From the IMG/VR virus record IMGVR_UViG_3300035034_003552: DNA of 33,175 bases; one strand, given 5' to 3'. Numbering within the stretch: position 1 is the first letter of the stretch; every line of letters starts with the position of its first letter. Source of the stretch: a virus. Its lineage: Duplodnaviria; Heunggongvirae; Uroviricota; Caudoviricetes. Made by a program: the position numbers and the translations under genes. The notes beneath the pieces were generated by a model. It searched no databases, was not told the origin of the DNA, and saw nothing but the letters and a program-made list of their open reading frames with translations. Positions 10,169 to 29,895 of the stretch are shown piece after piece.

Positions 10169-10207
10169 TAGTACTAAATAATATATTAAAAAAAGGAGAG
10201 GTTCAAG

Positions 10208-10555
10208 ATGGCAGAAGAAACTAAAACAGAACAGATTTTTCCAGGTGGTCCAACTAAAGAACAGGTAGCAGGATGGAAGACAGAACATAATGATAAAGTA
10301 TATATGAGTGAATTTGAGGACCAGGCATTTATCTGGCGTCCTCTAACACGATTTGAATATAAATCAATACTTAAATTGCAAAATGCAGATGCATTATTTA
10401 GAGAAGAAAGAATATGTGAAACATGTATTCTATACCCAGAAGGTTATAACTATGACAATATGGCGGAAGGTGAAGCTGGTGTTCCGAGTCTGTTGGCAGA
10501 ACAGATAATGGATGCTTCAGGATTTACTAGCTCAGGTGCTGCAAAAAAGCTCTAA
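10208..10555 (+). CDS. Tail assembly chaperone (gpG-like), 115 aa
   Basis: RBS AAGGAG. Small acidic protein ('FIWRPLTRFEY...GVPSLLAEQIMDASGF') between the tube genes and the TMP. Ends in a slippery site. Confidence 0.8.
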   Translation: MAEETKTEQIFPGGPTKEQVAGWKTEHNDKVYMSEFEDQAFIWRPLTRFEYKSILKLQNADALFREERICETCILYPEGYNYDNMAEGEAGVPSLLAEQIMDASGFTSSGAAKKL

Positions 10556-10887
10556 ACTACTATCGCGATGAGGTCGAAAATTTCGAGTCTCAGGCGGAAT
10601 GTTTAATCAAAGAAGCTTTCCCAAATACTTCTTTCGAAGAAATGCAGCATTGGACAATAGATGAATTCATGCACCATCTAGCAAGAGCAGAATGGATATT
10701 AGAAAATCTAAGAGGAATTGAATTAGAAGAAGAGACAGATAATAACAACCAGACACAGGATAAAGATAAGCTCGCAAGAGAACTCGTAAAAGAAGGACGA
10801 GATCCCATGTTCGAGCTTTATTCACCAGATAAAGAAAATAGTAACGAACCAGATATCCAAGGGATTGACTGGAGAGGAGAACTATAA
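10208..10887 (+). CDS. Frameshifted tail assembly chaperone (gpGT-like), about 226 aa; includes ORF 10642..10887
   Basis: The -1 frame reads ...AKKALNYYRDEVENFESQAECLIKEAFPNTSFEEMQHW... and runs into the 81-aa ORF, which has no obvious RBS of its own. Confidence 0.8.
10543..10549 (+). other. Programmed -1 ribosomal frameshift site A AAA AAG
   Basis: gc-A AAA AAG-ctc-taa. The -1 frame is stop-free from 10543 into the ORF ending at 10887. Confidence 0.85.
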
Positions 10888-10910
10888 AAGAGAGGAGTTA
10901 ACTAATACTT

Positions 10911-13900
10911 ATGCCACCATACGAAAACAGTAATAGGCAGTATTTAGCAGATGACTCTGATCATACTAGTTCTTCAGAAGCACGAGATAGGTTACAGCAG
11001 AAAGAGGGAAGTATTCTCTCACCGCTCTTAAAGATAGGAGCGGTAGCTGCTGGAGCTTATGGTGCTTACCGGTCAGGGCTACTACAAGCCCCCCTTGGAT
11101 TTGTTACTAAACAGGCGGGGCAATATAGATCAAGATATGTTGACGGACCTGTTTCGGGAATAAAAAGATGGGTAAATAATTTCGGCGCAGAAAACGGAAA
11201 ACCCTTAATAGATGAAGTATCTGAAGAGATGAGTAGAAGAGCAGCTAAGGAAAGTGATGAGCTTCATGGTAGAATAAGCAATTTTGAAGAACTGCTATTC
11301 GAGAAAGAAAGAACCATAAGACAGACAGAAGATGTAGTAAAAACAGAACTAAGATACAAAGAAACAATGGACTATCTAAATAAGGAAATGTCTGATGACG
11401 GATTAAGTCAGCTAGAAGAAGAACTAAGAGACGGCCCTTCTGGCATGAAGCAATTATTAAATGATGCCGATTTAGATACCAGACTTAACAAAAAACTTAA
11501 TGATACAGATTATAATACCTACCTAAATAGGCCAGAATATTCAGCAGGCACAAGTGAGCTAGAAGAAAAAATAATAGCAAAGAATAAAAGGTTTATAGAA
11601 AAACAGTATCAGGAAGAAATGAACCGTAAATTTGCAGGAGATAGTGGTCGAGTTAAACAGACTACTGGCCTGGATAAGCTTACAGTAAAAGATTTATATG
11701 ATAGGAATTTAATTGGCCAGGAAGGTACCATAACAACAAAAAGTGGACTGGAAGAGTTTGACGCCAGAAAAGCTGTAGAGAAGTTAGCAGAAGATAATCC
11801 AGATGTATGGAATATGGCAGCCGGCAAAGGATTGTTAAAAGAAGAAACTGGAGATGTAGTAGACTTAAGGGGCATAGGGGAAACAGGAAGTAAGGTAATG
11901 AACTCTCTTACTTATGATTTTAAAATACCCTTTGTAAACTTTAACCCACTACAGATGCTTCATCTGCAAGATTTTAAGATGAAAAGGGAAGCACCCAGCT
12001 TCTCAATACTATCTGCTGGGCAGAGACAACCTGTAATATCAAGTAACAAGATGGATGAATCATTGCTATATGCTGGCGGTTCGGTACAGAGAATATTAAA
12101 GCCGGATGATGGTCCAATAGCAACAGACACCTATCTTACTTCAAATAGATTCGGTTTAATGTCAAGAACTATGAATGAGTTGTCAGGCAATAGTACCATG
12201 CCAAAACAGCAAAGAGAAGAAGGCTTTGGGAAATTTGTTGATAAAGTAAAGAATACTTTTGATATTTTTCAGCAGGATCAACCTAGTCTTTTTAAGGAAT
12301 ACAAGTCAGCCTTTTCTAAATTCAACAATGATGACTGGGTTAAAAATCAAACAGCAGATTTAATAAACGGAAATAAGTTTGATGATCCAGAAAAAGCAGT
12401 AGGGAACATAAGAGGTTTTCTAGATTCGCGCTCAAAAGGATTTAGAGGAGAAGTCTGGGACGCATTAGATGATGATATATCAAATGTATTCCACGACATA
12501 GACAACATAGACCTAAGAGATGACGATGAAGTAATAAACCTGTTAAGAAAGTTTGCAACTGACAGAAATACTCAAGTTTCTGATAAATACAGGGCAAGAT
12601 TTAAAGGATTATGGAATAGGTATGCAAAAGACCCACAGCGGTTTAAAGATGGTAAGAGAGTATTAAGTAATAAATCAGCAATAGATAGACTTCAAAATAC
12701 AGAAATGATATCTAATGTTGACGATGCTAGAAAGTTAATCTCGAAAGAGTTTACTTATAGATATGGAACGGATAATTCGGATCAGCTGATAAAACAACTC
12801 AGTAGGGCAAAAAAGAACAAAGAGATAACAGTATCTGGATACAGAGAAGCGGTAGAAACTATAACATCTACTAACTTCGATGATATAAGCACTCCAGACT
12901 TCAAACAGACCAAAGAAGATGCGATTAGACAAACAGTCAATTTCTTTGGTTCAGAGAGTAAAAAGGCAAAGCAGAAACGCAAAAACTTAATGGATGTTGT
13001 AAATCAGCATTCTAAATTCTGGCAAAAAGGTCCTTCAGGCCTAAAGAAGAATCTGCCAAAATCAGACTGGTTGATAATGAATAAATCAGTAACACCAGCT
13101 GACGCCATAAAGAGCAAAGAGGGAGCCTCTAAATTTGTAGGACAATTCTTTGCAGGCAGAGACAATATGCAGGATGTTACTACAGCGACCACTCTACCTT
13201 TTTATATGTTCGAGAGACTCAACAGGGGTCTAGGTATGTTTGGTATGGGTTTATCGGGTCGCAGTATGAGCTCCCCCCAGGCTATGTACGGCAATCTCAT
13301 GACCAAAAGGGTTCTACCGGTCGTTGGAGTAATGGCAGGGGCTAAGTACGCCTCTTACGAGTACGAGAAGGCAACAGGTAAAGACCTTGATGATGAGTTT
13401 GCAGACTTGGGCGCAAGGGCGAAATTAGACTTTGCAAGATTAAGAGATAAAACGGGAGCAACAGACGCTTTTAAAAGACTTGATATGCTCACACCGGGTA
13501 ATGAGAATATATCAGAATTCCCTGGAATAAACTTTTTAGATTATGCAAAAACCGAAGAAGAAGTAAAAGAAGATCTAACAACTGGCCGGGAACCCGTAAG
13601 AAAAGGTAGATACTGGCCATTTGGAAACACTCCATTCATAGGTGATAGAACAGAGTATTTTGTACCCAACTGGTATAGAAGAGCAAAGAGTGACTATGAA
13701 TATACAGACGTAAAATACGGTTCAAAAGATGAATACTGGGAAAACAGTGCGATACCTACACCAAGACACCCAACCTCACCAATAAAACATTTTATAACAG
13801 ACCAGTACCATTATGAAAAGAAGCATTATAATAGAAGACCTTATCCTAAAACAGGCAAGATGGGGTATGAAATACCACTAATAGGGCCAGCAGTATCAGC

Positions 13901-16526
13901 AACCATAGGGGAGATTATAAAACCCCAAAAAGATATGCACCTTGAAGATATGCAGCAGGGAGCTGGCAGTGCTGATGGTGAGAGTACTGGTAGTAATGCT
14001 GGCAGAGTTGCTGTTAAAAGTGATGGCAAGACTACTGACAGGGTTACTGGTAAATATACTGGTGGAACCGAAGAGGAAAGCCACATACCAGAGGGGGAGA
14101 GTGTCTATTATGTTCCTCCTTCCAGTATGCCAGAAAAAAGAAAGATGGTATCCAAAGGTAAAATAAGCATTGAAGAAATAAATAGACAGATCAAAGAAGA
14201 TGCCAAGAACAAAAACTTCATCACAATGAGACCACCTTATATGGATGATGATGTTGAGACTGCACCTGTTGAATCAGGAGATCCAAACTCAGCAGAATAC
14301 ACAGCAAGCGAAACCTACTATCGTGCCTCTGAAATGGCAGGTTTTTACGGGTTTGGGATTAGTGAAGTGACAGGACAGGGCGGAATAGAAAAACCAGTTC
14401 TGGCCAGTGCAGATGATATGAACTCCTATAGAAGAGGATTCTGGGATATGAACCTCGGTGGACTAGGTGGTGAGTTATCTGAGATAGTAAGAAGATTTAT
14501 TCCAAATAGACCCTACGGTCAAAAAGAAGCACAGATTAACCACATAAGAAATGAAATGCCAAACTGGATGCCCGGCAGTGATTACTTTAAGAACTTTAAA
14601 GAGGGAGATCCATTTACTAAAATCCCTAGAGGAGAAGCAAGGCTACCAGGTGAGGGTTATGAATCATTAAACGAATTACATCCAGATGAGTACGGAGAAG
14701 AATACGGCTCATACGATAGATTCAAGATCTTAGCGGATGTTGCCCCATATAGTCAAGAATACCAATACTATCGGGAAATAATTGAAAACAATGATGACCT
14801 ACCAGAAGAACTCAAAAAAGAAGCGGCACAGATAAAAAGAGAAGTATCAGAGAGGAAAAAGGACAGAAAGTTTCATCCTTATAGATTCCAGACTTCAAAC
14901 ATCAAAAAAGAAGAAGTTACGATTGAAAAAGTATTAGACTCTAATAATTACATGGTTGAAGAGTATCCAGATACGCCCATAAGATTAGCTGGATTACATG
15001 TGAGTACTGCAAAGAACAATGAAAAAGCCGAAAAAGCCAAGGAGTACTTAAACAAAAGAATTGAAGAGAGCGATAAAGTAACTATAGGTATTAATGAAGA
15101 TAAACTAAATAGAGTCAGAGATGATACCTATGGTACGATGCATGCTGTTATATATTCTGATGGAGAAAATATAAACAGAGAACTGATAGAAAAAGAACTA
15201 GCCAAGGAAAAAGAGAGCGATTATTCCCCAGAAGCAGTACATGCAAGATTCTCCAAATCAGAAATAGCAGTGGGTAAAGCGTGGGAACAGTTTGCTCACA
15301 TGGACACTCCCGCTCATACAAAGTACATGCAGGTAAGATCACCATTAGAGTCCTATAAAAGAAGAGACGTATATGGTAAGGACTGGCAGAGTTGGTCTGA
15401 GCCAGTTGATGACTTCTTAAAACCTACTTATGACAAGTTCATTACAAGAAATCCAGTTAAGGCAACTGTTGCCGGTGCTTTCATTGGTAGTCTATTCGGA
15501 AGAACTAAAAGAGGTAAAGCAATAGGCGCAATCGCAGGTGCCCTGACAATAGGAATAGGCTCTTTAACCAGAAGTATCAAAGAAAGAACTACTGGAGAAA
15601 AATGGGTACCAGAACGGGTTGAGAAAAAAAGAGAAATCAACAAGTATTTTGACATATTAGAATACGTAAAATATAAAGGACTATACGAAAAAACTATTGA
15701 TGAAGCCGAAGATGCAGGTATAGATGCTGAAGGAAAGATAGAAGAATATGCAAAAAGCGGCGAAGAGATCAAAATAGAGCGAAAGAAATTAACTAAAAAG
15801 AAAAGAGAGCTTTATAGAAAAGGAACATCTAAAGCAGAAGCAGAGATATCAAAGATAAATAAGAGGCTTAAGGAGCTATCCAAAGAGCGGAAAAAAGTAA
15901 CCAAGTTAGATGATTACACAGCTCAGGCTCTAGAATACAGAAATGAATATGAGTCAACACTCCAAGGAGCAGACCTAGGTGGATCACTTCAGAAATTATT
16001 CGGGGCAATACCAGATCCAGAGAGGTCGTATTTTACTGACTTCCTTGAAGCACCAGAAGAAGACAGAGACGAGATCGGAGAATTAGTACCAGATAATTTA
16101 AGAAGAATACTCCAGGCACATTGGGGTAAGGAACCAGATGAAAAGACCGACTTAAAATCTTACTTTAAAAAATACAAACTACCAGATAAAGACTGGCGCG
16201 GCTGGGAAGAATCAAACAGTCTTGATGACATAAAGCTTAAAGTAGTACAAAGTGAGAACGAAAACATGATTGAGTATGGTTACTGGGATGATGATATTGA
16301 GCAGGCAGACCTGAAAGGTGCAGAGCCTGTTGACTATGATGAAGGCACAAGTGTCTCAGAACTTAGAAAAAATCTCCAGGAGGTATTAGAAGGAGAAGGG
16401 CTATCAGATGTATCCATAGAAGTAGGGTCCTCAAATACTAATGGAGATAGATTTGATATTAATATAGAAAAGGACAGACGAGAAGAAATAAAACAGAAAC
16501 TAAATGAAGAAGGAATTAAATTTTAA
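10911..16526 (+). CDS. Tape-measure-like protein (1871 aa) with Gly/Ala hydrophobic segments and a degenerate SNase-fold domain
   Basis: Directly follows the G/GT chaperone. Largely helical. Hydrophobic segments near 11013..11069, 13310..13360 and 15450..15570. SNase-like domain at about 14910..15210. Confidence 0.72.
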   Translation: MPPYENSNRQYLADDSDHTSSSEARDRLQQKEGSILSPLLKIGAVAAGAYGAYRSGLLQAPLGFVTKQAGQYRSRYVDGPVSGIKRWVNNFGAENGKPLIDEVSEEMSRRAAKESDELHGRISNFEELLFEKERTIRQTEDVVKTELRYKETMDYLNKEMSDDGLSQLEEELRDGPSGMKQLLNDADLDTRLNKKLNDTDYNTYLNRPEYSAGTSELEEKIIAKNKRFIEKQYQEEMNRKFAGDSGRVKQTTGLDKLTVKDLYDRNLIGQEGTITTKSGLEEFDARKAVEKLAEDNPDVWNMAAGKGLLKEETGDVVDLRGIGETGSKVMNSLTYDFKIPFVNFNPLQMLHLQDFKMKREAPSFSILSAGQRQPVISSNKMDESLLYAGGSVQRILKPDDGPIATDTYLTSNRFGLMSRTMNELSGNSTMPKQQREEGFGKFVDKVKNTFDIFQQDQPSLFKEYKSAFSKFNNDDWVKNQTADLINGNKFDDPEKAVGNIRGFLDSRSKGFRGEVWDALDDDISNVFHDIDNIDLRDDDEVINLLRKFATDRNTQVSDKYRARFKGLWNRYAKDPQRFKDGKRVLSNKSAIDRLQNTEMISNVDDARKLISKEFTYRYGTDNSDQLIKQLSRAKKNKEITVSGYREAVETITSTNFDDISTPDFKQTKEDAIRQTVNFFGSESKKAKQKRKNLMDVVNQHSKFWQKGPSGLKKNLPKSDWLIMNKSVTPADAIKSKEGASKFVGQFFAGRDNMQDVTTATTLPFYMFERLNRGLGMFGMGLSGRSMSSPQAMYGNLMTKRVLPVVGVMAGAKYASYEYEKATGKDLDDEFADLGARAKLDFARLRDKTGATDAFKRLDMLTPGNENISEFPGINFLDYAKTEEEVKEDLTTGREPVRKGRYWPFGNTPFIGDRTEYFVPNWYRRAKSDYEYTDVKYGSKDEYWENSAIPTPRHPTSPIKHFITDQYHYEKKHYNRRPYPKTGKMGYEIPLIGPAVSATIGEIIKPQKDMHLEDMQQGAGSADGESTGSNAGRVAVKSDGKTTDRVTGKYTGGTEEESHIPEGESVYYVPPSSMPEKRKMVSKGKISIEEINRQIKEDAKNKNFITMRPPYMDDDVETAPVESGDPNSAEYTASETYYRASEMAGFYGFGISEVTGQGGIEKPVLASADDMNSYRRGFWDMNLGGLGGELSEIVRRFIPNRPYGQKEAQINHIRNEMPNWMPGSDYFKNFKEGDPFTKIPRGEARLPGEGYESLNELHPDEYGEEYGSYDRFKILADVAPYSQEYQYYREIIENNDDLPEELKKEAAQIKREVSERKKDRKFHPYRFQTSNIKKEEVTIEKVLDSNNYMVEEYPDTPIRLAGLHVSTAKNNEKAEKAKEYLNKRIEESDKVTIGINEDKLNRVRDDTYGTMHAVIYSDGENINRELIEKELAKEKESDYSPEAVHARFSKSEIAVGKAWEQFAHMDTPAHTKYMQVRSPLESYKRRDVYGKDWQSWSEPVDDFLKPTYDKFITRNPVKATVAGAFIGSLFGRTKRGKAIGAIAGALTIGIGSLTRSIKERTTGEKWVPERVEKKREINKYFDILEYVKYKGLYEKTIDEAEDAGIDAEGKIEEYAKSGEEIKIERKKLTKKKRELYRKGTSKAEAEISKINKRLKELSKERKKVTKLDDYTAQALEYRNEYESTLQGADLGGSLQKLFGAIPDPERSYFTDFLEAPEEDRDEIGELVPDNLRRILQAHWGKEPDEKTDLKSYFKKYKLPDKDWRGWEESNSLDDIKLKVVQSENENMIEYGYWDDDIEQADLKGAEPVDYDEGTSVSELRKNLQEVLEGEGLSDVSIEVGSSNTNGDRFDINIEKDRREEIKQKLNEEGIKF

Positions 16527-16537
16527 GGGGTGTAAGT

Positions 16538-19500
16538 ATGGCTAACAACATTGAATCTAATTTAGACATAAAAAGTGGAACTATATGGGAACAACTGGAA
16601 CCAGAAGTAAGAGACCAGCTTAGGTATTCTGGGTTTTTTACAAAAGATTCTTTAGCTGAAAACACCTCACCTTCATATATTCCTTTCAAAAAAGTAAAGG
16701 GTGTGCCAAATAGTAATAACAGAAATTATTCTGGCAGCGGCGAAGACTATGAGCAATTACATAATAACTTAATAAACACCATACAAGAAAGACAGCAAGC
16801 AAACCAGGCAATTTTAGATGTTGATAGTTTTAATAGCCAAATGCTCGATGAATACAGGGATGTATCAAGATCAGATACCAGAAAAGCCAAACTTGATTGG
16901 ATAAAAAGTCAGGGGATAGAAAAATATGATTCAAATGCTAGAGACTGGAGCTGGAAGAGGATATACAAAACCTATGGCCAGAACACGGAAATAGATATCT
17001 GGCGCGATGTTACTAATATGCACAATAACAATAAACCACAACAAGCACTAGAGTCGTATATGAGCATGAGAAGAGACAGTCAGAGTGCGATGTTTTTTGA
17101 CCTTGAGACTTTTGGTAGTTTCGATCAAAGGACTGGTGAAGTAGGCAATTACTTCATGCCCTATCAGGCAAGTTTTACTGAGGGGAGATTTATTGACGGT
17201 GAGTTTAAAAGTTCAAATAATACAAGATCATTTCTTATAAATCCAGAAAGCACCAAGCAGATAGACGGGATAAGAAGTGCTATAGATAAACTTAAAACAA
17301 GTGGATCTAGTCCAGCATCCCTAACTGATGCAGAATATAGAACCGTAAGAGATCTTATAAAGATTTCAGAAGCGGATGTAAATAATGGAGAAATTACTAA
17401 TATACCATCATGGGTTGATAAAGAAATACCAGAACAAGGTGTAACAGACTTAAGTAAGTATGTAACAAATGCCGAAAAGGGATTAGAAAAGTTGAAGAAA
17501 GAAGGTCAGTCTCCAGAAAAATTATACGATTACTGGAATAGATTAACAGAAAACAACATGGTTGCAGGACATAATATTACAAATTACGACATGCCCGCAC
17601 TGCAGACTTTCGCCAGAGAGGAAGGCATTAAGGCAAATACTACTGATAATGTTTTCGATACTCTAAACTTATTTAGATCACTCAGTACAGACCCAGAAAG
17701 AGATATGTTTGGTGGAAATAACACTTCAAGTAAGGGCCCGCTAACACTCGATGCTTTTAGGGAAAAGCACGGGATTATCGGTGATAGTCATACTGGTACT
17801 TTTGATAATAGATCCCTGGTAGAAATACTGAATAGAGAACAAAACAATATAGATAATTCTTTAAATAATATGCTTTACAAATCTGACGCTGATCGTGCAA
17901 CAAAAGAAACTATGGATAATATATTTCAAATAGATAATAAATCAATTAGAACAGGAGATGTACTATTTGCTCCACAAGGCCAGCACCAATATGGAGAGGC
18001 TGCAGCAGATATGGTACTTAACCCTACCGAAGAAGGCCTATCGAAGCAGATGTTCCCTGAAGTATCAGTAAGAAGAAAGTCCTTTTATCAAGTATCAGAC
18101 GCTTTTGGGGATCAGGGTAGATTTAATGTAGTATTAAAGAACTTATCTGATGAAAATGTTCATGTAATATCAAGAGAAAATAAATCAGATCTACAAAACT
18201 ATATACAAAAGATGTTTAACTATCACGGCAGAGAAGTAGGTGACGAGTTAAATACTATAAAACAATCCTATCAAAGTGACCTTGCCAGAGGAAGATATAG
18301 AAGATTATTTTCTGGAGATAACAGGTCGTTTAAAAATAGCAAAATGTTTTTTGATGCTTTAGATATAGAAGATGAATCAGAACTATTAGAACATTTCAAT
18401 TCTGAACAGCAACTTAGGGACTTTGAGAACATGAGGCCAAGGTTGGAGTCAGAAGTAGAAGTAGTAAGACCAGCGTTAGAAAGAATAGAAGAGCAGTTCG
18501 GAGAAAACAATCCGAAATCAGATAAAGCTATGATTCAGCTTAAGAGGTTCATGGATGACAGCTTTGGGTCACATAGAGAAGAAATAGATTTATTAGATTT
18601 TGAGCAGCGAAGAGTCGATATACCAACAATTGACGGTAAAACTTCTTCAGTAAACATCCCAAACTTTGAAGAAGGTAGTCAAAACATGTGGTGGAAAGTT
18701 TACAATGAGACCAAAGGCAAAGAAAAAAGAGCCAGAGATGTCTACATGAAGGATATCCTATCAAGATTAGAAAGAGACGAAATAATCACAGCTCAAAAGA
18801 GGCAGAAAATAGCTGAGAAAGATAATGTGAGATATCAGATACAAGCATTAGTGGATGATCTGATGCATAATGACGAACTGGCAAAGGCAAATCAAACACT
18901 TGAAGTAGAGTCAGTCAAGGCAAGAAATATAATGGTAAGTGGAGAAGAAGCTGTAAAGAAGGGTAGAGCCTTCGGGTCCCAGGCGATTGATATAACACAA
19001 AAAGGGGATTTTAATGGTAAATATATTCAGAATGAACTTGATAAATTAAGTACCAAAGCGAGCAAGACTCTGCCTGATGGATTTAATTACGACTTTAAAA
19101 AGAACGTAGATGAAATAAGTAATATATTAGACAAATCATATAAAGGAAAAGGCGTAGGGTTTACATTCAGCTTTTCTGAGGAAACAGGTAATTTAACCCT
19201 GACAGTATCTGATAGAGAGATGGTAGATAGCGTAGAAAAAAGCTTACTTAAAGGTACTCCGTCCAGAAAAGCCGCTTATGTAAATATTCCAATGCCAGAT
19301 GAGGACGGGTTAATACATCAAAAGAGTATAACTAAGGCAGCACAGGGTTTTATAAAAACAGATAATACAAGAGGTGCACCCAAATACGGAGTCAGAACAG
19401 CAACCGTAACCGATGAGGTTGTAAGAGGAATAGACAGAAAAGCAACTCAGATAAGACAGACTATAGAAGATGGGAATATAGAAGAAGCCCAAAGACAATT

Positions 19501-22500: not shown

Positions 22501-23584
22501 GGATATAGACACAGGAGATAAAACAGCCTTTCAATCCATAGAGCGTTTCGGACAGATGCTAGAGCAGGAATTCATTGATGTTAAACATGATGACCTTATA
22601 ACAATAGGAAGCGCTGGCAAGGGTATGGAAGGTGTACACATCTCCAAAGAGGTTGGAACAGCCATCAATCAAGGCAACTTCGACTTCTTAAGTAGTATAA
22701 AGAAAGAGAGTACTGGTGAAAAAATATTCGACCAGGCAGATCTTGAGGTAGTAGAACAATTTACTAAATCAATGAAAGATATAGATGCCTGGTATGCTCC
22801 AGAAACAAGAATGTTTTTAAGTAGTCAGATGGCAGACTACGGAGGTGGGGCTGGCGGAATAATGGATCTTGCGAAAAGGTCCGAAACTGGTGATACAGTT
22901 CTAACCCCTTATTTAAAGGATGTACTGGGAGAAGCTGGTATTAAAGAATCAGCTGACAGTAATGTGATAAGAAGATTGAAGAATCTATCACCAGATAGCA
23001 TAAGTGGTTCACAGGCTGCAAAGGGTGCGACCACAACTAGTATTGGTGCTACTAGAAACCTTGCTCCAGATCAGATAGCAAATTCTGCAAAAAGCTTTGT
23101 GGATAAAGCAGGTAAAACACTTAAGGGAGCTGGAGCTATCGCAGGAGTGGCGGCAGGTGCATACGCTGTAAGTCATTTCTTCAGAAAAGATCCAATTAGC
23201 CCCGAAGATCTTCCACAGGCCGATAAGTCTCCAGATGTTAATGGTAAGTATGACATGAATAAATATAAAATCGAGAGAGAAAGACAGCAGGAGAGAGAGC
23301 AACAAAAAAAACAGGCCGAGCAAAGAGAAAGAGGTAATAGAAAAGTAAACACCGAGTCCAATCAAGCCTATATCCAGAATAACGGGGCCGGCAAGAACAT
23401 AAAGATATCTGGAAAAGGAAATGTGGATACCGAGAGGATAGCATCAGTAATAGAGCAGCAGGCCTCACAGAGAGGTTCAGAAGCTAACATCAACATGAAT
23501 ATAAGAGACAATACAGATAATATAGATAATGCGTGGATGCAGCAGAGAGTTTCAGAAGCTATAAATGATGGTTATACGCATTAA
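16538..23584 (+). CDS. Single-chain two-barrel (beta+beta'-like) RNA polymerase fused to an N-terminal DEDDh 3'-5' exonuclease; probable virion RNAP
   Basis: Colinear motif matches to cellular RNAP beta then beta', including NADSDGD at 22022..22042 (aa 1829-1835), 'GIRYP', 'GKSGD...KNL.VRMPTSG' and 'KMDVEGEK'. Exonuclease motifs DLE (D188/E190), 'GHNITNYD' (D351) and 'HTGTFD' (H418/D423). Confidence 0.85.
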   Translation: MANNIESNLDIKSGTIWEQLEPEVRDQLRYSGFFTKDSLAENTSPSYIPFKKVKGVPNSNNRNYSGSGEDYEQLHNNLINTIQERQQANQAILDVDSFNSQMLDEYRDVSRSDTRKAKLDWIKSQGIEKYDSNARDWSWKRIYKTYGQNTEIDIWRDVTNMHNNNKPQQALESYMSMRRDSQSAMFFDLETFGSFDQRTGEVGNYFMPYQASFTEGRFIDGEFKSSNNTRSFLINPESTKQIDGIRSAIDKLKTSGSSPASLTDAEYRTVRDLIKISEADVNNGEITNIPSWVDKEIPEQGVTDLSKYVTNAEKGLEKLKKEGQSPEKLYDYWNRLTENNMVAGHNITNYDMPALQTFAREEGIKANTTDNVFDTLNLFRSLSTDPERDMFGGNNTSSKGPLTLDAFREKHGIIGDSHTGTFDNRSLVEILNREQNNIDNSLNNMLYKSDADRATKETMDNIFQIDNKSIRTGDVLFAPQGQHQYGEAAADMVLNPTEEGLSKQMFPEVSVRRKSFYQVSDAFGDQGRFNVVLKNLSDENVHVISRENKSDLQNYIQKMFNYHGREVGDELNTIKQSYQSDLARGRYRRLFSGDNRSFKNSKMFFDALDIEDESELLEHFNSEQQLRDFENMRPRLESEVEVVRPALERIEEQFGENNPKSDKAMIQLKRFMDDSFGSHREEIDLLDFEQRRVDIPTIDGKTSSVNIPNFEEGSQNMWWKVYNETKGKEKRARDVYMKDILSRLERDEIITAQKRQKIAEKDNVRYQIQALVDDLMHNDELAKANQTLEVESVKARNIMVSGEEAVKKGRAFGSQAIDITQKGDFNGKYIQNELDKLSTKASKTLPDGFNYDFKKNVDEISNILDKSYKGKGVGFTFSFSEETGNLTLTVSDREMVDSVEKSLLKGTPSRKAAYVNIPMPDEDGLIHQKSITKAAQGFIKTDNTRGAPKYGVRTATVTDEVVRGIDRKATQIRQTIEDGNIEEAQRQLNHAVNNVLEDLPDTSKGITSGGKKYTTPSDTAKRNYIRADGIAPKVASDLGLEEKSAYKDIMADKGFLELDDLRLGDRMKVIREMPAYLENSGASQVPGMEDLNLKVNSGSVKAKHVGNANFSAMDLRDYRPFAHYTSATRPNIIQMNRHYQLEDEAIEAVSKSGTMSFGNNIMTEEMFGLEKAQGSKPSNISMNVAMLYDNRVLDNLYEHYGENSNFITKGSTYENTAVIRESNMQLFDGYRQKSLSIPDVVDADIEFSGAVKRASEGEEVILKPNDIIAKYIDEGGRERQLRYTENTEGIISNIDLRPGQERVEVAVNMPGQTSMKMDVEGEKVTVIPMADETMDKFFGKDIGMAYASNIEKHEDFGSPIAGQVNKVIDKIENIDDDKLRSDERKRFVNKFNEVFEQDITTDNFVEYNGDTVLKVGGSSENWTNDIKPKEVQQLLKDFEVDETRTLATGDQVVTQKQAVGRQQVDEHLRLKTSIGGTPEWDVQDVGVKFGPRQTFAVEELWGMEKTGQYIRGKALEDSSVDGQVRESIRAMRFMEEGIPENAPVNAPEDFNRAVRGINGYLDESLEGTVINPSQTSEGVGAFMKIPEVQIDDGTGKRVNVDSVYMASRELGRTSGGRAELDKIQSLQSRIHDLSLEYNERMVRPDDVKTTDLRPFSKITEDLSKTVENYYKELSDSVAGKSGDVAKNLTVRMPTSGHGRIRIMSPTTPTAESVFKESDWNEILGAEGSESYDIFQDKVSKYQKELGTDIVEENTMYISKERAREMATDKITGEVDDQLLKQMGGEGSYGLGIRYPMFFKEAAQPVKFKTHGDVTGNDLWMTPGTADILNADSDGDTGAFFITRDFHEDKSIKGKTKRIRTQSSLDAENEIKNKFQSKELINARREQATNAVSDYMQKMNTTNEEFVKNFNENIQSAARKKGTGLQTLDNLVPDKVFKANVGAEADEAVMHSKLGKMGIGYLSNINMKIKQLAKGVENKNSKVFNRMFKDIDTGDKTAFQSIERFGQMLEQEFIDVKHDDLITIGSAGKGMEGVHISKEVGTAINQGNFDFLSSIKKESTGEKIFDQADLEVVEQFTKSMKDIDAWYAPETRMFLSSQMADYGGGAGGIMDLAKRSETGDTVLTPYLKDVLGEAGIKESADSNVIRRLKNLSPDSISGSQAAKGATTTSIGATRNLAPDQIANSAKSFVDKAGKTLKGAGAIAGVAAGAYAVSHFFRKDPISPEDLPQADKSPDVNGKYDMNKYKIERERQQEREQQKKQAEQRERGNRKVNTESNQAYIQNNGAGKNIKISGKGNVDTERIASVIEQQASQRGSEANINMNIRDNTDNIDNAWMQQRVSEAINDGYTH

Positions 23585-23601
23585 AAAAAGGATGATTATA
23601 T

Positions 23602-26600
23602 ATGGCTAAAGAAGTCTTTTTCGGAAGAGATGGAATAAAAAAGATAATAGACGAAAGACAAAATTACAAGGTAGAACCTGTGGACGATTTAGATGAAGTC
23701 CACGGGTCTCCTGATAATATGTACTTTATGAGGATAGGGGATGTTCAGTTTCTAATACCTCCTACAGCGATAAAGACAGAAAAGAATGTTCCTTCTGATA
23801 AGATACATCCACTCAGGAGTAATAAGACATTGAAGTATAATAACGGACATAGGCTGACAAGAATTTCAGTTGAAATATACTTTCATAACATAAATTCCAT
23901 AAACGGATTTAAAGAAAGAAATCCCGTAGCCGGCAGTAGAAGCGACAAGAATAACAGCATAAATAAAGTAAATAGTAACGACTATTATATAGATGGTTTA
24001 AGGAGTCTTATCGCACAATTTAATAAAGCTCCATTCCTACCAATAGAGAATGAATACATAAACAATGTATTGGGAGTTGATGGTGTCACATTAAATGGAA
24101 TGCAGACAGAGACGATGGACGGCTTCCCTAATACATTAAAATGCACATTAACCATGTACGAATTTAATTATCGTTCATATATACCGTGGATTGATGAAGT
24201 AGTAAATGACAAGTTTTTGGCATTCAAGAATATTTTTAACTGGCCACTTTTTAGATATCACTACCAAAAAGATATAGATAACTATAAGCCAATAGAAGGC
24301 AGACAGGTTAGTGATGAAATAACATTTAGAGAAGTAGACGAGGACCAGTTAAGAAGGAGAAAAGAAGCAAGAACAGAGCTTACTCAGAATGCAGAAAAGT
24401 ACGAGAAGACACTAAATGATATAAGAATTGAAGAAGACAAGTTTTCCGAAAGCTTCTTAGAAGATATAGAATCATATAACAAAGGCAAAACAGAATACCT
24501 TGAGCTTAAAGAAAAGCAGAGAATAAAAGGAGAGGACTTTTCTCTTGGTGATTTAGATAAAAGCCCTAACAATATGATAACTGAAAAAGAAGGGGACTTC
24601 GGAGCAATAAAGATAGAATCACCATCACCTGCACTAATGGAATTAGCAGTCAAAGGCAATAGAGTATCGGGGTCTAATACGGTATTAATATACCCAGAAG
24701 GTCATGATAAATACAACCTTGAAGATGAGAAATTAATAGATTATATAAAAAATAATGAGGATAAAGATGCAGTAGAACGGGCCAGTGCTCGTCACAATAA
24801 GTTGATCATGGAAAAAGAAAGACTGGAAAATCAAGCTCAAATATCTGAGATAGAACTTGAAATGAATAAGGTTCCTCTTGATGACTTATACCTTAAAAGC
24901 CTTTCCTTAAAACAGGAGAATACGGTAAGTCAGATCAGACTTGATCAGCAGACAGAACCAGCTCACCAGTTTTTCGGTGGCCAGGATGTTTTAGGCTATG
25001 CAGAATTCCAGGCTACAAGTAGAGAAACGGTGGCGATCTTTAGAAGAATGCTTGATGCTGCTAACGAAAAGACTCAAAACTATAGAGACGAGATAATGCC
25101 GGGATTTTTTGGAGTAGAAAATGATTTATTAAACCTCTTTGGTGTAGATAACATCATAGTCGAAAGTGCGAACATCTCTACCACACAGTCACCAGAGGTT
25201 TTTAATATATCCATAATGTTTTACGAGTTCAGCGCCGACCAAAAAGACCAGGAAGAAATAAACGGGATAAGCGGTAATCCAGATAGAGTACAACCACAAA
25301 AAGAAGAATTGAAAAACCTTAATAACATAAATATGGTACAAAATACTCTTATGCTAAAAAAGAATTTAAGCAGTAAAAGCCCCTATCCTGACCTTAACTT
25401 ACCTACCTTCGAGGAAATAAGGGCGTTTATGGATCTCCACAGTGAGGATTTAGGAGGGGTCAGAGAAGGTCTAGAACCAACCTATGTTGATCCTGACTTC
25501 TATATAATGACTATGCCAGACTTAATAGATTTCGTAATGGAATCATTAAAAGATAACTCGCCTATTGTACTCAAGGACAGATACGGTCAAAAAACAAATT
25601 TCTCAACTCCAGATTTTAACTTTGATGGAGGCAATGACGATAGTGGAGGCTTTAGGTATAATGAAAGTGTAAAAAATAAGAATGAAGAGATACTAGATGA
25701 AGTATCTGGATCTGCAGAAGAAACAGACGAGGTGGATGCTAAGACATACGGCAATATAAGGGACGACCTGGAACAAACTAAACAGAGTAATGGAGAGTAT
25801 GAACTAAACTCCAGTATGTTCGACGGTAACATAACTTCAATAGAACACCCAATAAATGGCGAAGTGCCTACCACTAATGAAAGATTTTTTGGTATGCTGC
25901 ATGATCTAATCAATTACTCCCATCAGGGGCGATTATCAAGAGCGTTCCCGGCATTCAACCTTTTCTTCATAGAGGAAGGTAAGGAGCTGGGGCAATACAA
26001 GCTATGGGATAATCTTTACGGGGTCAACGGTATTTCATCAATAGATATATCGAAATCCAGAAAGCAGGCGGCAGACACCTGTTATATAGAGATATCAAAT
26101 ATTTATAACAATCTATACAACGATTCTTCAAAAGATCCAGATATAGATGAAGAAGATCAGTACAGCTTCTTAAACTATTTTAGTGATAACCTCAACCAGA
26201 GTATGATAGATGAACATACAGAACTTAAAGACAGGCTAAATATATTACCGGGCGCCAGGGTTCAGATAAGAATGGGTTATGGAAGCAACCTAAACAGTAT
26301 GCCTTTAGTATTTAACGGAACAATAGCAGAGATAAATACTAATAAAAAGACTGTAATAATGGCCCAGTCGGATGGGGCAGAGCTAACAAACTTGATACCA
26401 GCCGACAAAGAAGAAAAGACAAGTCGCTTAAATTACGGTGTGGAACCAAGAGATATAATAATGTCGATACTAAAACAGGAGGTAAGTCTTGCTAAAGAGA
26501 TAGGTAAGCATGTTACAGCTGGTAAATTCTTTTCTCAAAATTATTTAGGTATAGAACACTTCGGGAAAGAAAGAAGAAAATATTATGACCCTTCGGAATC

Positions 26601-28983
26601 ATACGGTGATGGGGGTGGACTTATTCACTATGCCGGTCTAGACGATTCCGCTATAGGTCTTAATGTTTATCCTGGATTACCAGAACTTGTAGAAAAAGAA
26701 AGAACAAGATTTGGCAGCTTCGTCAGAGGATTTTTAGGAGAGCCCAGATCAGATGAACAAAACATGAACTTCTATCTATACAATCAAACCCCCTGGGATA
26801 TTTTCCACAAGCTCTCTTATGCGTTAGAAGACTTTATAGTGAGTGCGGAACCATTTGAATTAAGGAGCACTCTTTATTATGGCAAGCCAGACTGGCCGAT
26901 TACCTACGGATTCGGATATGATGGAGACTGGTCTTCAGTAGAACAAGCAAGTGATTTTGACCCTGGCAGTCTAGTGAATAAGAAAAAGACCTTCCAGCAG
27001 GCACACTTTATAAGCAGTAATTTAGACATCATAAACAATGGGATAAAAGCAAGCAGCAGAGATGTCCACACTTATGGAATAGCCTCTTATAAGGATGACA
27101 GGGTATATCATTCTGGATACAAAGAATATCATACCATGAAGGTCTGGGCGGATACGGATATAGATAACCAGTACCAGAAATTAATAAACGTAGATACAGG
27201 ACTTGTCCATAAGGGTATATTACCTTTCTGGTCAACGAAAAAAGTGGCAGAAAATATGGCCGCCTGCACAATCAGGGATAGCTTAAAAGATATGTACAAG
27301 GGAAATATTACAGTTATTGGTGATGCCAGCATAAAACCACATGACTATATAAATATGAATGACTCTTATAATATGATGAACGGTGCTTTTTCAGCAGAAC
27401 AGGTAGTACATCATATGGGTGTAGATACTGGTTTTGTAACTAATATAACACCAGACGCACTTAGTTATGTATCAAACGCTTCCCTTAAGCCTTACACATT
27501 CCTTGATGCTACTTTTGGAGCTGTTGGGGTTGCTACTACACTTGCCGGCCTAAAGGCTATAGCAAGAGTAAATGACGCAATGAATATAACTGACAAACTA
27601 AAAGTTCTTGGGAGTAGTTTTAAATGGGCTAAAAGCGGAAGTTCCATAGCAAGTGATGCAGCCTCTGGGGTGTTAAAATCCTTAAAAGGCAGCAAAACGG
27701 CAGCAGAGATAACCAGCAATATAAATTTACAGCTTGCCTCAAAGATAATGGATCAAGTAGACGAAGGGACAGATGCTTATAAAATAGCTCTGAAACTAAA
27801 GAATGGTACTTTAAAGATTTCCGATGCTGTCTCAGAACTTTCAGCCCTTTCTAATACGGGTAATAGTTCTGTAATAAAAAGCCTAGTTAACTCAGCCGAG
27901 ATAATGAGTAAGACAAGCAGTAAAATATCAAAAGCTGGAGATGCAGGTAAAGATGTATTTAGTGTTGCAAAAACAGTACTAAAGGGTGTCAAAAGCTCTA
28001 CTAGAGTAGTAAAGGTACTCGGATATTTAAAGACAATAGGTCTTTTATTAATAGCAGAAGGCATACAGGATCTATTCTTTAGGTGGGCCAAGAACCGACA
28101 GAGATGTATAGTTATTCCTATGAAAAAGGATAACAAGGAATTTTCGGCCGGGATAAAAGGCCACCAGGGATTAGTATGGGGAGAACCAAAGGGTTACTGG
28201 GATAAAGGAGTAAGTCTGGTAGGTAAGATAGGCGGAATCCCGATGTTTAACTTCGATATGTGGACAGATGATATGTACTCTCCAGGAAATACTGAAGATG
28301 ATCTAACAATAGGAAGAATATTTGATATGATAACTAGCTTATATGATGAAAGAGTGGAGCTAGCAGGATATGCGCCAATACCCACAACAAGAACAAAAAC
28401 TATCAAGAGTGAAGGTTATTTTGAAGAAGTGCTTGAAAAACAGCAGGAAGAAAATCCCGATGATGAATTCGAGCTCTATGACTACAAAGAAATATATGAT
28501 GAAGACTTTTATAGCTTCAACAGTGAGTCCGAAAGACGGCTAAATATAAGAACCATTGAAATAATGAGAGAACTGCAAAATCAGCTTGAAAGTTTTGGTA
28601 TGAACTCTGCAGATATAATAACTGGTCGCCACCAGAATGCAGCAGAAAAATTAGGACCAAATCCAAGTATAAATGTGTCGGGCACATTCCTTGACGGAAC
28701 GGTTTTTGATTTTGATTATTTCCTCAGGGGTATGTATGAAAATATTACTGGGCCACATGCGACCGGTTTTGCTGTGGATATAGAATATGAAAATCAGGAA
28801 GAAAAAGAGATTCTTATAGCCGCTATAGAAAACCTAAAGATAGGCCTGGATGGAGAAGCGGTTGGAAGTTATCTAATTAATAAAGACCAGAGCTATATAC
28901 AGATAGATGTATTAGGAAAATCATATAATGGGACAATATCAAGTTCTGATCTTCAATACGATGTAGACACAATAGCAAGATAA
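23602..28983 (+). CDS. Large multidomain baseplate hub protein (gp27/VgrG-like core) with duplicated N-terminal domain, hydrophobic region and C-terminal M15-like domain
   Basis: 'ILPGARVQIRMGYG...VFNGTIAEI...IMAQSDG' (about 26242..26400) and 'GNITVIGDASIKPHDYI...VEQVVHHM...GFVTNI' are typical hub motifs. Lies just before the spike/gp25/J genes. Confidence 0.72.
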   Translation: MAKEVFFGRDGIKKIIDERQNYKVEPVDDLDEVHGSPDNMYFMRIGDVQFLIPPTAIKTEKNVPSDKIHPLRSNKTLKYNNGHRLTRISVEIYFHNINSINGFKERNPVAGSRSDKNNSINKVNSNDYYIDGLRSLIAQFNKAPFLPIENEYINNVLGVDGVTLNGMQTETMDGFPNTLKCTLTMYEFNYRSYIPWIDEVVNDKFLAFKNIFNWPLFRYHYQKDIDNYKPIEGRQVSDEITFREVDEDQLRRRKEARTELTQNAEKYEKTLNDIRIEEDKFSESFLEDIESYNKGKTEYLELKEKQRIKGEDFSLGDLDKSPNNMITEKEGDFGAIKIESPSPALMELAVKGNRVSGSNTVLIYPEGHDKYNLEDEKLIDYIKNNEDKDAVERASARHNKLIMEKERLENQAQISEIELEMNKVPLDDLYLKSLSLKQENTVSQIRLDQQTEPAHQFFGGQDVLGYAEFQATSRETVAIFRRMLDAANEKTQNYRDEIMPGFFGVENDLLNLFGVDNIIVESANISTTQSPEVFNISIMFYEFSADQKDQEEINGISGNPDRVQPQKEELKNLNNINMVQNTLMLKKNLSSKSPYPDLNLPTFEEIRAFMDLHSEDLGGVREGLEPTYVDPDFYIMTMPDLIDFVMESLKDNSPIVLKDRYGQKTNFSTPDFNFDGGNDDSGGFRYNESVKNKNEEILDEVSGSAEETDEVDAKTYGNIRDDLEQTKQSNGEYELNSSMFDGNITSIEHPINGEVPTTNERFFGMLHDLINYSHQGRLSRAFPAFNLFFIEEGKELGQYKLWDNLYGVNGISSIDISKSRKQAADTCYIEISNIYNNLYNDSSKDPDIDEEDQYSFLNYFSDNLNQSMIDEHTELKDRLNILPGARVQIRMGYGSNLNSMPLVFNGTIAEINTNKKTVIMAQSDGAELTNLIPADKEEKTSRLNYGVEPRDIIMSILKQEVSLAKEIGKHVTAGKFFSQNYLGIEHFGKERRKYYDPSESYGDGGGLIHYAGLDDSAIGLNVYPGLPELVEKERTRFGSFVRGFLGEPRSDEQNMNFYLYNQTPWDIFHKLSYALEDFIVSAEPFELRSTLYYGKPDWPITYGFGYDGDWSSVEQASDFDPGSLVNKKKTFQQAHFISSNLDIINNGIKASSRDVHTYGIASYKDDRVYHSGYKEYHTMKVWADTDIDNQYQKLINVDTGLVHKGILPFWSTKKVAENMAACTIRDSLKDMYKGNITVIGDASIKPHDYINMNDSYNMMNGAFSAEQVVHHMGVDTGFVTNITPDALSYVSNASLKPYTFLDATFGAVGVATTLAGLKAIARVNDAMNITDKLKVLGSSFKWAKSGSSIASDAASGVLKSLKGSKTAAEITSNINLQLASKIMDQVDEGTDAYKIALKLKNGTLKISDAVSELSALSNTGNSSVIKSLVNSAEIMSKTSSKISKAGDAGKDVFSVAKTVLKGVKSSTRVVKVLGYLKTIGLLLIAEGIQDLFFRWAKNRQRCIVIPMKKDNKEFSAGIKGHQGLVWGEPKGYWDKGVSLVGKIGGIPMFNFDMWTDDMYSPGNTEDDLTIGRIFDMITSLYDERVELAGYAPIPTTRTKTIKSEGYFEEVLEKQQEENPDDEFELYDYKEIYDEDFYSFNSESERRLNIRTIEIMRELQNQLESFGMNSADIITGRHQNAAEKLGPNPSINVSGTFLDGTVFDFDYFLRGMYENITGPHATGFAVDIEYENQEEKEILIAAIENLKIGLDGEAVGSYLINKDQSYIQIDVLGKSYNGTISSSDLQYDVDTIAR

Positions 28984-28998
28984 AAAGGAGGGTGGATT

Positions 28999-29895
28999 AT
29001 GGCAGATAACCCACTTAGGCAAACAATAGTAGATATAGTCAGAGGAGAATTAAATAGATACCTGGAACCCCAGACGGCTACGGTATTAAAATATGAAAAA
29101 AAAGAAAATCTGGCAAAAATTAGAGTAGACGATATTAAAGCTGGAGGAATAAGGGTAATTGAAGATGTTCCAGTTAAAATAAGTAAAGGACTGATAGATT
29201 ACGGTATAAATCCCGGGGACCGGGTGATGGTAGAATTTCACTCGGGAGACCCAGATGCACCATACATCTCAATGCTGATGGATGAAAAGTATGAGAGTAA
29301 CACCAGAGAAAATAATAAAGCTCCAGAGGATGTACCCAAAACAGGGAACACTATAAATGGCTCGAAAGAATATGAAGACCCAGAAAGTAAAAGGTATATG
29401 GAAAACGGAAGAATGGGTATAATCCACCCTCAACATAAATCGACAATGAGAATAGATAACGAAAGTGGTGATGTAGACCTCATAGCATCTAAAAACCTTG
29501 TAGAAGGAGAAGATGACCCACAGGCCACTTCAGCATTTAGGGTAAGATCAGATGGAAATATAGAGTCCATAGCAGGCAGGGTTGATAACTACTCTGCTGA
29601 ATACAACATAAACACAGATAAGAACGGCTTTTATTACAATAATTATCCCTTAAATCAAAAGATGGCCGCGATGAACCAGGGTTTAATGTCTGGTGGTACA
29701 ACTAGAGCCAAAGAAAGTATCATGGCCACCAAAGAAGACATAAAAAGATTAATGGGTGCTATCCAGACATTACCAGGGGCTCAAGGAGTAAGATTAAAAG
29801 GGGCAAAGACATATGGTGATAAGAGAAGTAACATCATGACAGACTACGCTGAAAGAGCACATGATATAGTATCAGAATATTTCCCAGAATTGTAG
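28999..29895 (+). CDS. Putative baseplate central spike (gpV/gp5-like OB-fold N-terminus)
   Basis: 'ATVLKYEKKENLAKIRV...IEDVPV...INPGDRVMVEFHSGDPDAPYI'. RBS AGGAGG. Position supports the call. Confidence 0.65.
   Translation: MADNPLRQTIVDIVRGELNRYLEPQTATVLKYEKKENLAKIRVDDIKAGGIRVIEDVPVKISKGLIDYGINPGDRVMVEFHSGDPDAPYISMLMDEKYESNTRENNKAPEDVPKTGNTINGSKEYEDPESKRYMENGRMGIIHPQHKSTMRIDNESGDVDLIASKNLVEGEDDPQATSAFRVRSDGNIESIAGRVDNYSAEYNINTDKNGFYYNNYPLNQKMAAMNQGLMSGGTTRAKESIMATKEDIKRLMGAIQTLPGAQGVRLKGAKTYGDKRSNIMTDYAERAHDIVSEYFPEL

Follow-up and report, generated by a model that had tools for sequence, protein, structure and literature searches.

Three giant genes and the modules of giant 2

The window analysed here, a 33,175-nt stretch of DNA (IMG/VR virus record IMGVR_UViG_3300035034_003552), is, judged from its genes, a tail gene module from a contractile-tailed relative of Bacillus phage 0305phi8-36. 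It carries three successive + strand open reading frames (ORFs), which we call giant 1 (10911..16526, 1871 aa), giant 2 (16538..23584, 2348 aa) and giant 3 (23602..28983, 1793 aa). These coordinates leave intergenic gaps of 11 and 17 nt and bear out the three consecutive giant genes described in the initial annotation of this DNA. A Shine-Dalgarno-like purine run precedes the ATG of all three ORFs, and at the base composition of the window even the shortest, an open frame of 1793 codons, would arise by chance with a probability of only ∼3e-61. A promoter and terminator scan of positions 10000-29999 gave no enrichment over shuffled sequence and found no + strand terminator-like site between the three genes; the latter supports the idea that they form one operon. 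Giant 1 lies in the canonical tape-measure position and is a homologue of 0305phi8-36 gp145, and giant 3 is a baseplate hub giant homologous to 0305phi8-36 gp147 and to gp035 of the Bacillus jumbo phage KLEB27-3. Giant 2, lying between them, is predicted to join an exonuclease, a middle domain, a single-chain RNA polymerase (RNAP), a membrane helix and a C-terminal anchor, and is the main subject of what follows.

The homologues of the RNAP half were collected by an exhaustive HMMER search with giant 2 aa 1150-2150 against 1.84 billion representative proteins (E ≤ 1e-3), which returned 15 proteins, 12 of them full-length giants of 2216-2454 aa, where a word-based search with the same half of the protein recovered only 2 and a single-protein scan of IMG/VR gave no match. 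We aligned the query, KLEB27-3 gp034 and the 12 full-length giants (n = 14), whose identity to the query is 17-28%. What stands out in this alignment is the motif that binds the catalytic metal, NADSDGD (aa 1828-1835; 22019..22042, +), as its D-x-D-G-D (D1831, D1833, G1834 and D1835) is invariant in all 14 sequences, as are R1793 and P1795 of an R-x-P motif 35 residues upstream and, in the first half of the module, K1316 and T1325. K1323 is conserved in 13 of the 14, and position 1214 is acidic throughout (Glu in 12, Asp in 2). Two-barrel RNAPs share a universal signature, to which the largest subunit contributes three Asp, an Arg and a Pro and the second-largest one acidic and two basic residues (PMC2919709), and the invariant residues of giant 2 correspond to it (Rpb1 R446/P448; Rpb2 K979/K987 and D837). 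For K1316, K1323 and position 1214 the equivalence to Rpb2 K979, K987 and D837 is drawn from motif spacing and from the fold match of aa 1111-1469, not from a residue-level superposition.

Profile and structure comparisons place the two double-psi barrels in a beta/Rpb2-like module (aa 1111-1469; 19868..20944, +), which holds K1316 and K1323, and a beta'/Rpb1-like module (aa 1532-2129; 21131..22924, +). A profile of the C-terminal halves of the giant 2 family (A1) matches phiKZ gp55, a subunit of the phiKZ non-virion RNAP, with E 9e-9, and Thermus beta' with E 1e-4. Its alignment to beta' starts ∼80 residues ahead of the barrel and extends through the NRAPT and NADFDGD motifs. The AlphaFold2 (AF2) model of aa 1090-2159 has a pLDDT of 67 and a pTM of 0.49. 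Searched with Foldseek against the PDB it gives at least 500 matches at E ≤ 0.001, and among the 50 matches listed all are second-largest RNAP subunits (probability 1.00, best E 2e-7). In VIA fold comparisons aa 1111-1469 align with A135/Rpb2/beta-type chains and aa 1532-2129 with A190/Rpb1/beta' chains: aa 1111-1469 score Z 16.1 against 4c2m_B (root-mean-square deviation (rmsd) 4.5 over 276 residues), 15.5 against phiKZ 7ogp_C and 15.2 against AR9 7s00_C, and aa 1532-2129 score Z 11.7 against 7ob9_A (rmsd 5.1 over 422 residues), 11.5 against 9mu7_A and 10.2 against 6edt_D, with Rpb1-type chains aligning over 390-420 residues. Other polymerases compared with the model of the RNAP half are QDE-1 (Z 11.2), P74-26 gp62 (Z 8.5) and P23-45 gp96 (Z 8.2). 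Both barrels are also covered by a compact single-chain phage protein in AFDB (A0A0F9QJZ1, E 1e-23), and the ESM Atlas holds a 208-member Uroviricota cluster of ∼911 aa proteins with PF00562 and PF00623 in one chain.

Together, the invariant motifs, profile matches and predicted folds uphold the two-barrel RNAP claimed for giant 2 and identify it as a complete single-chain beta-beta' fusion, probably of the multisubunit type rather than of the YonO/QDE-1 type, and as a predicted enzyme. The switch-2 region has been reported absent from RNA-dependent RNAPs (PMC2919709), and the stretch of giant 2 that aligns ahead of the beta' barrel may be such a region. A Pfam search detects nothing at all in the protein, PF05183 included, which is why giant 2 had remained unannotated; a single-sequence search of the PDB with giant 2 likewise gave a chance match only.

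Beyond this family, fold searches in BFVD and AFDB match both barrels to a protein of uncultured Siphoviridae sp. ctnpt50 that is labelled 'Minor tail protein' (E 3e-19); in BFVD, uncharacterised proteins from Acinetobacter jumbo phage ME3 and from Microcystis phage MaMV-DC are matched as well. Despite these fold matches the RNAP sequence profile finds nothing in the ME3 and MaMV-DC genomes. RNAPs embedded in tail proteins or giants may, on these predicted folds, be more widespread.

Ahead of the polymerase lies a DEDDh 3'-5' exonuclease domain (aa 175-448; 17060..17881, +). Its residues D188, E190, N346, D351, H418 and D423 are invariant in the 14 aligned sequences and, N346 apart, make up motif I (D-x-E), motif II (D) and motif III (H-x4-D). 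The domain matches phrog_403 with E 6e-8, and a profile of the N-terminal halves of the family matches the PolC exonuclease domain in the PDB with E 8e-8. The AF2 model of aa 1-1089 (pLDDT 74) folds aa 175-448 as an RNase H-like domain, for which VIA gives Z 14.5 against the Staphylococcus aureus DinG exonuclease 9ii8_A (rmsd 3.1 over 178 residues), 14.4 against ExoI and 13.5 against Pol III epsilon. The DEDDh exonuclease that had been proposed here is thus well founded, and by motifs and modelled fold alike it is predicted to be intact.

The middle region (aa 470-1089; 17945..19804, +) is alpha/beta in the same model, with pLDDT mostly 70-90. It is common to the middle giants of relatives that have no RNAP, and the A4 profile aligns it to the middle giants of two metagenomic loci, L019 and L022. 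Fold searches gave no match specific to aa 470-1089, the listed matches being filled by the exonuclease. Near the C-terminus one Gly/Ala-rich hydrophobic helix (aa 2194-2216, identified by hydropathy) is followed by a conserved terminal domain (together 23117..23581, +). Both are found in every giant 2 homologue, and nowhere does the family profile match 0305phi8-36 gp146 better than here. Neither AF2 half of giant 2 is one long helix; both are multidomain alpha/beta structures and largely globular.

The middle giant in related phages

Among cultured phages, similarity to giant 2 is detectable only in the Bacillus jumbo phages vB_BauM_KLEB27-3, vB_BceM_WH1 and Edson; a DNA-level search of the phage collection gave no match. 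These three phages and 0305phi8-36 share one gene order, in which the sheath, a sheath paralogue, tube paralogues and two chaperone-like genes are followed by three giants and then by baseplate genes. The giants measure 1340+677, 2434 and 2326 aa in KLEB27-3, 2025, 2515 and ∼2320 aa in WH1 and Edson, and 1930 (gp145), 2537 (gp146) and 1903 aa (gp147) in 0305phi8-36. Metagenomic loci were sampled through homologues of giant 2 and of giant 1. Synteny, which the initial annotation had named as a check on its proposal, proved to be conserved, as the giant triad is kept in all 12 related loci examined, cultured and metagenomic. The RNAP that had been claimed as part of the triad is not a constant element, being missing from gp146 and from 3 of the 4 metagenomic middle giants sampled.

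0305phi8-36 gp146 occupies the same position as giant 2; it lacks a D-x-D-x-D motif, and the RNAP profile does not match it. Its residues 2369-2530 align with positions 2075-2236 of the giant 2 profile, the C-terminal ∼160 residues, with an independent E-value (i-E) of 6e-12, and it also shares the stretch around exonuclease motif I (i-E 4e-7) and, weakly, part of the middle domain (i-E 1e-2). Four loci of the giant 1 family (L019-L022) were then sampled for the content of their middle giants. In L019 and L020 these have the exonuclease motif region and the C-terminal domain and no RNAP. In L021 the middle giant, of at least 3329 aa as it extends beyond the end of the locus, matches none of the three giant 2 profiles and gives a short BLASTP match to gp146. 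In L022 (15810-21749) the middle giant of 1979 aa does carry the RNAP (A1 profile E 6e-109, motif GDADGD), and here it is the exonuclease part of the profile that is missing. Because the RNAP occurs without the exonuclease in one relative, and the exonuclease without the RNAP in others, the two appear to be independent modules, and we regard the middle giant as a modular inner-tail protein for which, by sequence comparison, they are separable cargo.

If the RNAP can be dispensed with, a substitute might be sought elsewhere in the genome. 0305phi8-36 encodes a YonO-like polymerase, gp99, near its right genome end (PMC2147016, PMC7824862). We searched five complete genomes with PF05183 (0305phi8-36, with loci L016 and L024; Paenibacillus sp. 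EC2-1 CP186007, with L019 and L023; and those of L001, L009 and L018). Matches were found in 0305phi8-36 (E 1e-20) and in the 206.5-kb Paenibacillus element, the contig of L019 (E 3e-18), both with an RNAP-less middle giant, and no match was found in KLEB27-3, WH1 or Edson, whose middle giants all bear the RNAP. The giant RNAP module is therefore present, in all five genomes, exactly where the YonO-like gene is missing, which fits one two-barrel RNAP per phage. Where the middle giant is RNAP-less, the polymerase that the phage needs appears to be supplied by a separate YonO-like gene. A broader generalisation is tentative and, to our minds, somewhat doubtful: that in 0305phi8-36-like jumbo myoviruses this need is met interchangeably, either by an injected exonuclease-beta-beta' giant of the tail lumen or by a free YonO-like gene at the end of the genome that enters first. 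The injected giant would then be without known precedent on two counts, as a virion RNAP in the tail of a myovirus and as an RNAP with a native DEDDh exonuclease fusion, possibly combining transcription with 3'-end editing or with an attack on host nucleic acid at the entry pore.

Delivery with the virion and alternative readings

We favour, with a probability of roughly 0.6, the reading that the three genes encode inner-tail and hub proteins of a long-tailed jumbo myovirus and that giant 2 is carried in the tail and delivers its RNAP at infection for pre-early transcription. In 0305phi8-36 the annotation of both gp145 and gp146 reads 'identified as virion protein by mass spectrometry', and gp146, labelled a 'hypothetical tape measure protein', shares the C-terminal domain of giant 2; this supports a virion location for the giant 2 family. 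Consistent with it, KLEB27-3 gp031/033/034 and WH1 gp094-096 were deposited as structural proteins, and two of these, KLEB27-3 gp034 and WH1 gp095, match the RNAP profile with E 4e-68 and 1e-24.

In such a model all three giants would be assembled into the tail late in infection, in the lumen of the tube and at the hub. On contraction of the sheath the hub end would breach the cell wall, and giants 1 and 2 would exit the tube, their Gly/Ala helices inserting into the membrane. The RNAP module would then enter the cytoplasm and transcribe the genome end that enters first, ahead of any synthesis of phage proteins, and the exonuclease would act on nucleic-acid 3' ends at the entry site. It is unlikely that transcription alone would pull in ∼200 kb; the authors of the 0305phi8-36 study likewise held that it would hardly draw in the whole genome (PMC2147016).

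Several points weigh against this reading. The ejection and the pre-early activity of giant 2, as of its RNAP-bearing homologues, are what we infer. The 'structural protein' labels of KLEB27-3 and WH1 are deposited annotation, and the member verified by mass spectrometry, gp146, is itself of the RNAP-less type. In many relatives the triad does without the RNAP module, and the either/or pattern comes from five genomes only, of which WH1 and Edson are close relatives. As both AF2 halves are largely globular, passage through the lumen of the tube would need an unfolded or extended state; by analogy, the storage and passage of a ∼1000-residue globular enzyme is a problem that giant 2 would have in common with P23-45. 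Finally, KLEB27-3 and WH1 each carry a sigma-factor-like gene, from which it follows that host RNAP is probably used as well, so the 'host-independent' RNAP of the initial annotation was too strong a term.

Some of the same observations could be read in other ways. Giant 2 might be a late product that acts within the infected cell without being packaged or ejected, for example by transcribing middle or late genes or by processing RNA or primers, its place in the tail operon reflecting timing only. This would suit its globular modelled domains, direct virion evidence that for middle giants concerns the RNAP-less gp146, and the apparent replacement of its RNAP in relatives by a YonO-like, non-virion enzyme. 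We consider this unlikely, since giant 2 stands in the position of the mass-spectrometry-verified gp146 and has the same C-terminal domain, its homologues are deposited as structural proteins, its gene lies between the tape-measure-position and hub genes in all loci, and its conserved membrane-type helix would have no role in a soluble transcriptase. That helix adjoins the RNAP module, and would equally fit an RNAP that is mainly a motor for DNA entry, anchored in the membrane and transcribing the leading part of the ∼200-kb genome, or a primer maker, with the exonuclease preparing the DNA end and gene expression secondary. Transcription drives DNA entry in T7 and N4, so there are precedents, and a possible role of an RNAP in injection was raised by the authors of the 0305phi8-36 study (PMC2147016). 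We likewise think it improbable that entry is the main task, as relatives without the RNAP module still infect; a motor function is, however, compatible with pre-early transcription, and nothing here separates the two.

The remaining alternatives concern the enzymes themselves, and we give both very little credence. The RNAP-like and nuclease-like folds might serve a tape-measure-type protein as exapted, non-catalytic scaffolds; in 0305phi8-36, after all, the protein in this position was assigned as tape measure from a correlation with tail length, and an SNase-like fold in giant 1 has substituted catalytic positions. The universal catalytic residues of both the RNAP and the DEDDh domain are nevertheless all invariant among homologues of 17-28% identity, which is expected of selection for catalysis and not for shape. 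The fusion of a DEDDh exonuclease to a polymerase, being a hallmark of proofreading DNA polymerases, could instead point to a proofreading enzyme with an unusual product, either a DNA polymerase (like archaeal PolD) or an RNA-templated polymerase (QDE-1-like). The Z of 11.2 for QDE-1 would agree with this, as would the Asn of NADFDGD, which in E. coli beta' contacts the sugar of the incoming nucleoside triphosphate and is not conserved in the giant 2 family. The best fold and profile matches are, however, to DNA-dependent multisubunit RNAPs and include the stretch ahead of the barrel, there is no PolD chain among the 50 matches listed, and polymerase and exonuclease each occur without the other in relatives.

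Delivery of an RNAP with the virion is known from N4-like podoviruses, crAss-like phages, phiKZ-like jumbo phages (in the head) and siphovirus P23-45 (in the tape measure). The analogy to P23-45 and crAss-like phages drawn in the initial annotation is apt, and the favoured reading would be of an already known kind, a virion RNAP fused to a tail-internal giant as in P23-45. The closest precedent, P23-45 gp96 (PDB 8H2M/8H2N; PMC10770324), comes from a phage with a very long tail; it is a giant protein of the tail interior into which a two-barrel RNAP is built, its chain also has transmembrane segments, and it is proposed to carry out pre-early transcription at the entry pore (PMC10770324). It belongs to a siphovirus, however, whereas giant 2 would be that of a contractile-tailed jumbo phage; its RNAP is N-terminal and followed by ∼3800 aa of tape measure, whereas that of giant 2 is the C-terminal half, behind a DEDDh domain and with little sequence left for a tape; and its fold match (Z 8.2 over 197 residues) is weaker than those to multisubunit RNAPs (Z 15-16), with no sequence similarity detected. 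crAss-like phi14:2 gp66 (PDB 6VR4) and the N4 virion RNAP are also delivered with the virion in giant multidomain proteins encoded among structural genes. These are, however, a QDE-1/YonO-like two-barrel enzyme and a T7-like enzyme, respectively, and are carried in the head of podovirus-type virions; in BFVD, crAss-like phage proteins match the giant 2 RNAP model with a probability of only 0.9 and E ∼5e-4.

The phiKZ and AR9 RNAPs (PDB 7OGP, 7S00) give the best sequence-profile match (gp55) and are in the top tier of folds (Z 15.2-15.5), but are made of four or five separate subunits and do not belong to the tail. In AFDB and the ESM Atlas, compact phage RNAPs of the single-chain beta-beta' type have both barrels in one chain, as giant 2 has, but are standalone proteins of ∼900-1260 aa, whereas the giant 2 module lies inside a tail giant of 2348 aa that also contains an exonuclease and a membrane helix. 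YonO of SPbeta and 0305phi8-36 gp99 are single-chain two-barrel RNAPs of Bacillota phages whose distribution is complementary to the giant module in the five genomes; unlike these PF05183 relatives, giant 2 aligns to beta' from the pre-barrel stretch onward and has no PF05183 match. 0305phi8-36 itself is of the same lineage and has the same gene order and similar gene sizes, and giants 1 and 3 have clear homologues there in gp145 and gp147; it differs in the RNAP-less gp146, with the YonO-like gp99 encoded near the right end instead. The new elements are the myovirus setting, the multisubunit-type beta-beta' fold, the fusion to a DEDDh domain, for which the literature searched describes no counterpart with a two-barrel RNAP, and the either/or relation with YonO-like genes. 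No paper in the literature searched connects the tail giants of this lineage with an RNAP, and the relatives' giants are deposited as 'structural protein', 'virion structural protein' or 'hypothetical protein'.

If delivery of giant 2 with the tail is correct, the tail-tape route of RNAP delivery would extend to myoviruses, raising the question of how a ∼1000-residue enzyme gets through the tail tube, and proteins of the cultured phages KLEB27-3, WH1 and Edson that now stand as 'structural', 'hypothetical tape measure' or 'hypothetical' would be re-annotated. As these phages are in culture, the idea of a tail RNAP is directly testable, and the alternation with YonO-like genes amounts to a natural experiment on why these phages need a polymerase of their own.

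Giants 1 and 3 and their neighbours

Giant 1, not giant 2, is the first gene after the ORFs in the tail-chaperone position. It corresponds to a fusion of KLEB27-3 gp031 and gp033, and its profile (A2) matches 0305phi8-36 gp145 and WH1 gp096 at E = 0. The family comprises 645 proteins at E < 1e-3, mostly of ∼1900 aa and mostly on contigs of ∼200-230 kb. Hydropathy identifies a Gly/Ala-rich hydrophobic helix near the N-terminus (aa 32-52; 11004..11066, +), whose position is kept in 5 homologues, and a pair of such helices (aa 1515-1556; 15453..15578, +) kept in all 5 aligned homologues. The SNase domain (aa 1372-1442; 15024..15236, +), which the initial annotation had described as enzyme-derived, stands as a fold (PF00565 at 22.8-24.6 bits, above the gathering score of 21; E 2e-3 when the family profile is compared with thermonuclease structures). 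Its catalytic residues do not, as in the one HMM alignment made the family consensus keeps Arg35 and has other residues at Asp40, Glu43 and Arg87, so that the domain looks like a non-catalytic OB-fold.

The core of giant 1 is strongly conserved and rich in aromatic residues; a feature search of the Atlas with aa 740-1300 gave no usable match. Inteins and homing endonucleases (PF14890, PF14528, PF13403) recur in giant 1 homologues, for example L005:3456-9914 and L007:1956-9059. As inteins usually insert at highly conserved functional sites, their repeated presence hints that this core is more than a spacer. In 0305phi8-36 it is the middle giant that was called the tape measure, from the tail-length correlation mentioned above (PMC2147016).

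The giant 3 profile (A3) matches 0305phi8-36 gp147 with E 5e-250, and gp147 has been assigned as an enlarged homologue of the T4 gp27-type hub (PMC2147016). By homology giant 3 is a gp27-type baseplate hub, the gp27 domain itself being taken from that literature assignment. Its conserved core (aa 755-1530; 25864..28191, +) matches phrog_20474 with E 9e-191 and has invariant columns and hydrophobic helices at aa 1298-1324 and 1467-1495. These are less Gly/Ala-rich than those of giants 1 and 2; hydrophobic helices conserved in position, as had been ascribed to each giant, are present in all three.

An M15-like peptidase domain had also been claimed for giant 3 and is not confirmed. The C-terminal domain (aa 1600-1793; 28399..28980, +) has an H-x2-G-x-A-x-D motif and is possibly LAS/M15-like, as a lead only, with a Gln, by eye, where the third zinc ligand (His) of the M15 type is expected. 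An Atlas feature similarity of 0.83 to Peptidase_M15_3/Hedgehog is again a lead only. Three C-terminal pieces gave no Pfam match, aa 1540-1793 and 1640-1793 not even at E 1-10, a homologue search with aa 1600-1793 found a 99%-identical fragment only, and BLASTP found a 47-residue match (E 1e-3) to the C-terminus of a relative. The M23 matches of the family profile do not belong to this protein, as they stem from relatives' C-termini, which end instead in M23, glucosaminidase, SLT, LysM or phage lysozyme domains. The C-terminus of giant 3 is thus, by comparison with these relatives, variable and predicted to be directed at the cell wall. In a related locus it is the hub giant (L008:8023-15369, 2448 aa), not giant 1, that bears a faint SNase match, together with a weak Peptidase_M23 match, which suggests domain shuffling among the three giants.

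Upstream of the triad the window holds two tail-sheath paralogues (2577-4145, 522 aa; 4742-7081, 779 aa), a duplication also found in 0305phi8-36 and KLEB27-3. Between 7168 and 10168 three successive ORFs match one PHROG, phrog_9206, which is labelled 'major head protein'; the ORFs occupy the position of the tube and tube-paralogue genes of relatives, and the PHROG is common to the relatives' genes in that position. A probable group I intron (7652-7936, +) lies between the tube-like ORF 7168-7683 and the ORF starting at 8224, matching the full Rfam model RF00028 (1-253) with E 4.8e-10 and 44.7 bits, below the gathering score of 50.

Directly upstream of giant 1, two small ORFs (115 and 81 aa; 10208..10887, +), the first of which matches phrog_29362, take the tail-chaperone position, their function being assigned by position only. 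They are the positional equivalents of WH1 gp097/098 and of 0305phi8-36 orf143/144, which form a two-gene tail chaperone (PMC2147016). Downstream of giant 3 follow gp25/W-like and J-like baseplate genes, whose ORFs match baseplate wedge and J families. With the sheath paralogues, the tube-position and chaperone-position ORFs and these baseplate genes as neighbours, the myovirus tail setting proposed for the three giants is borne out.

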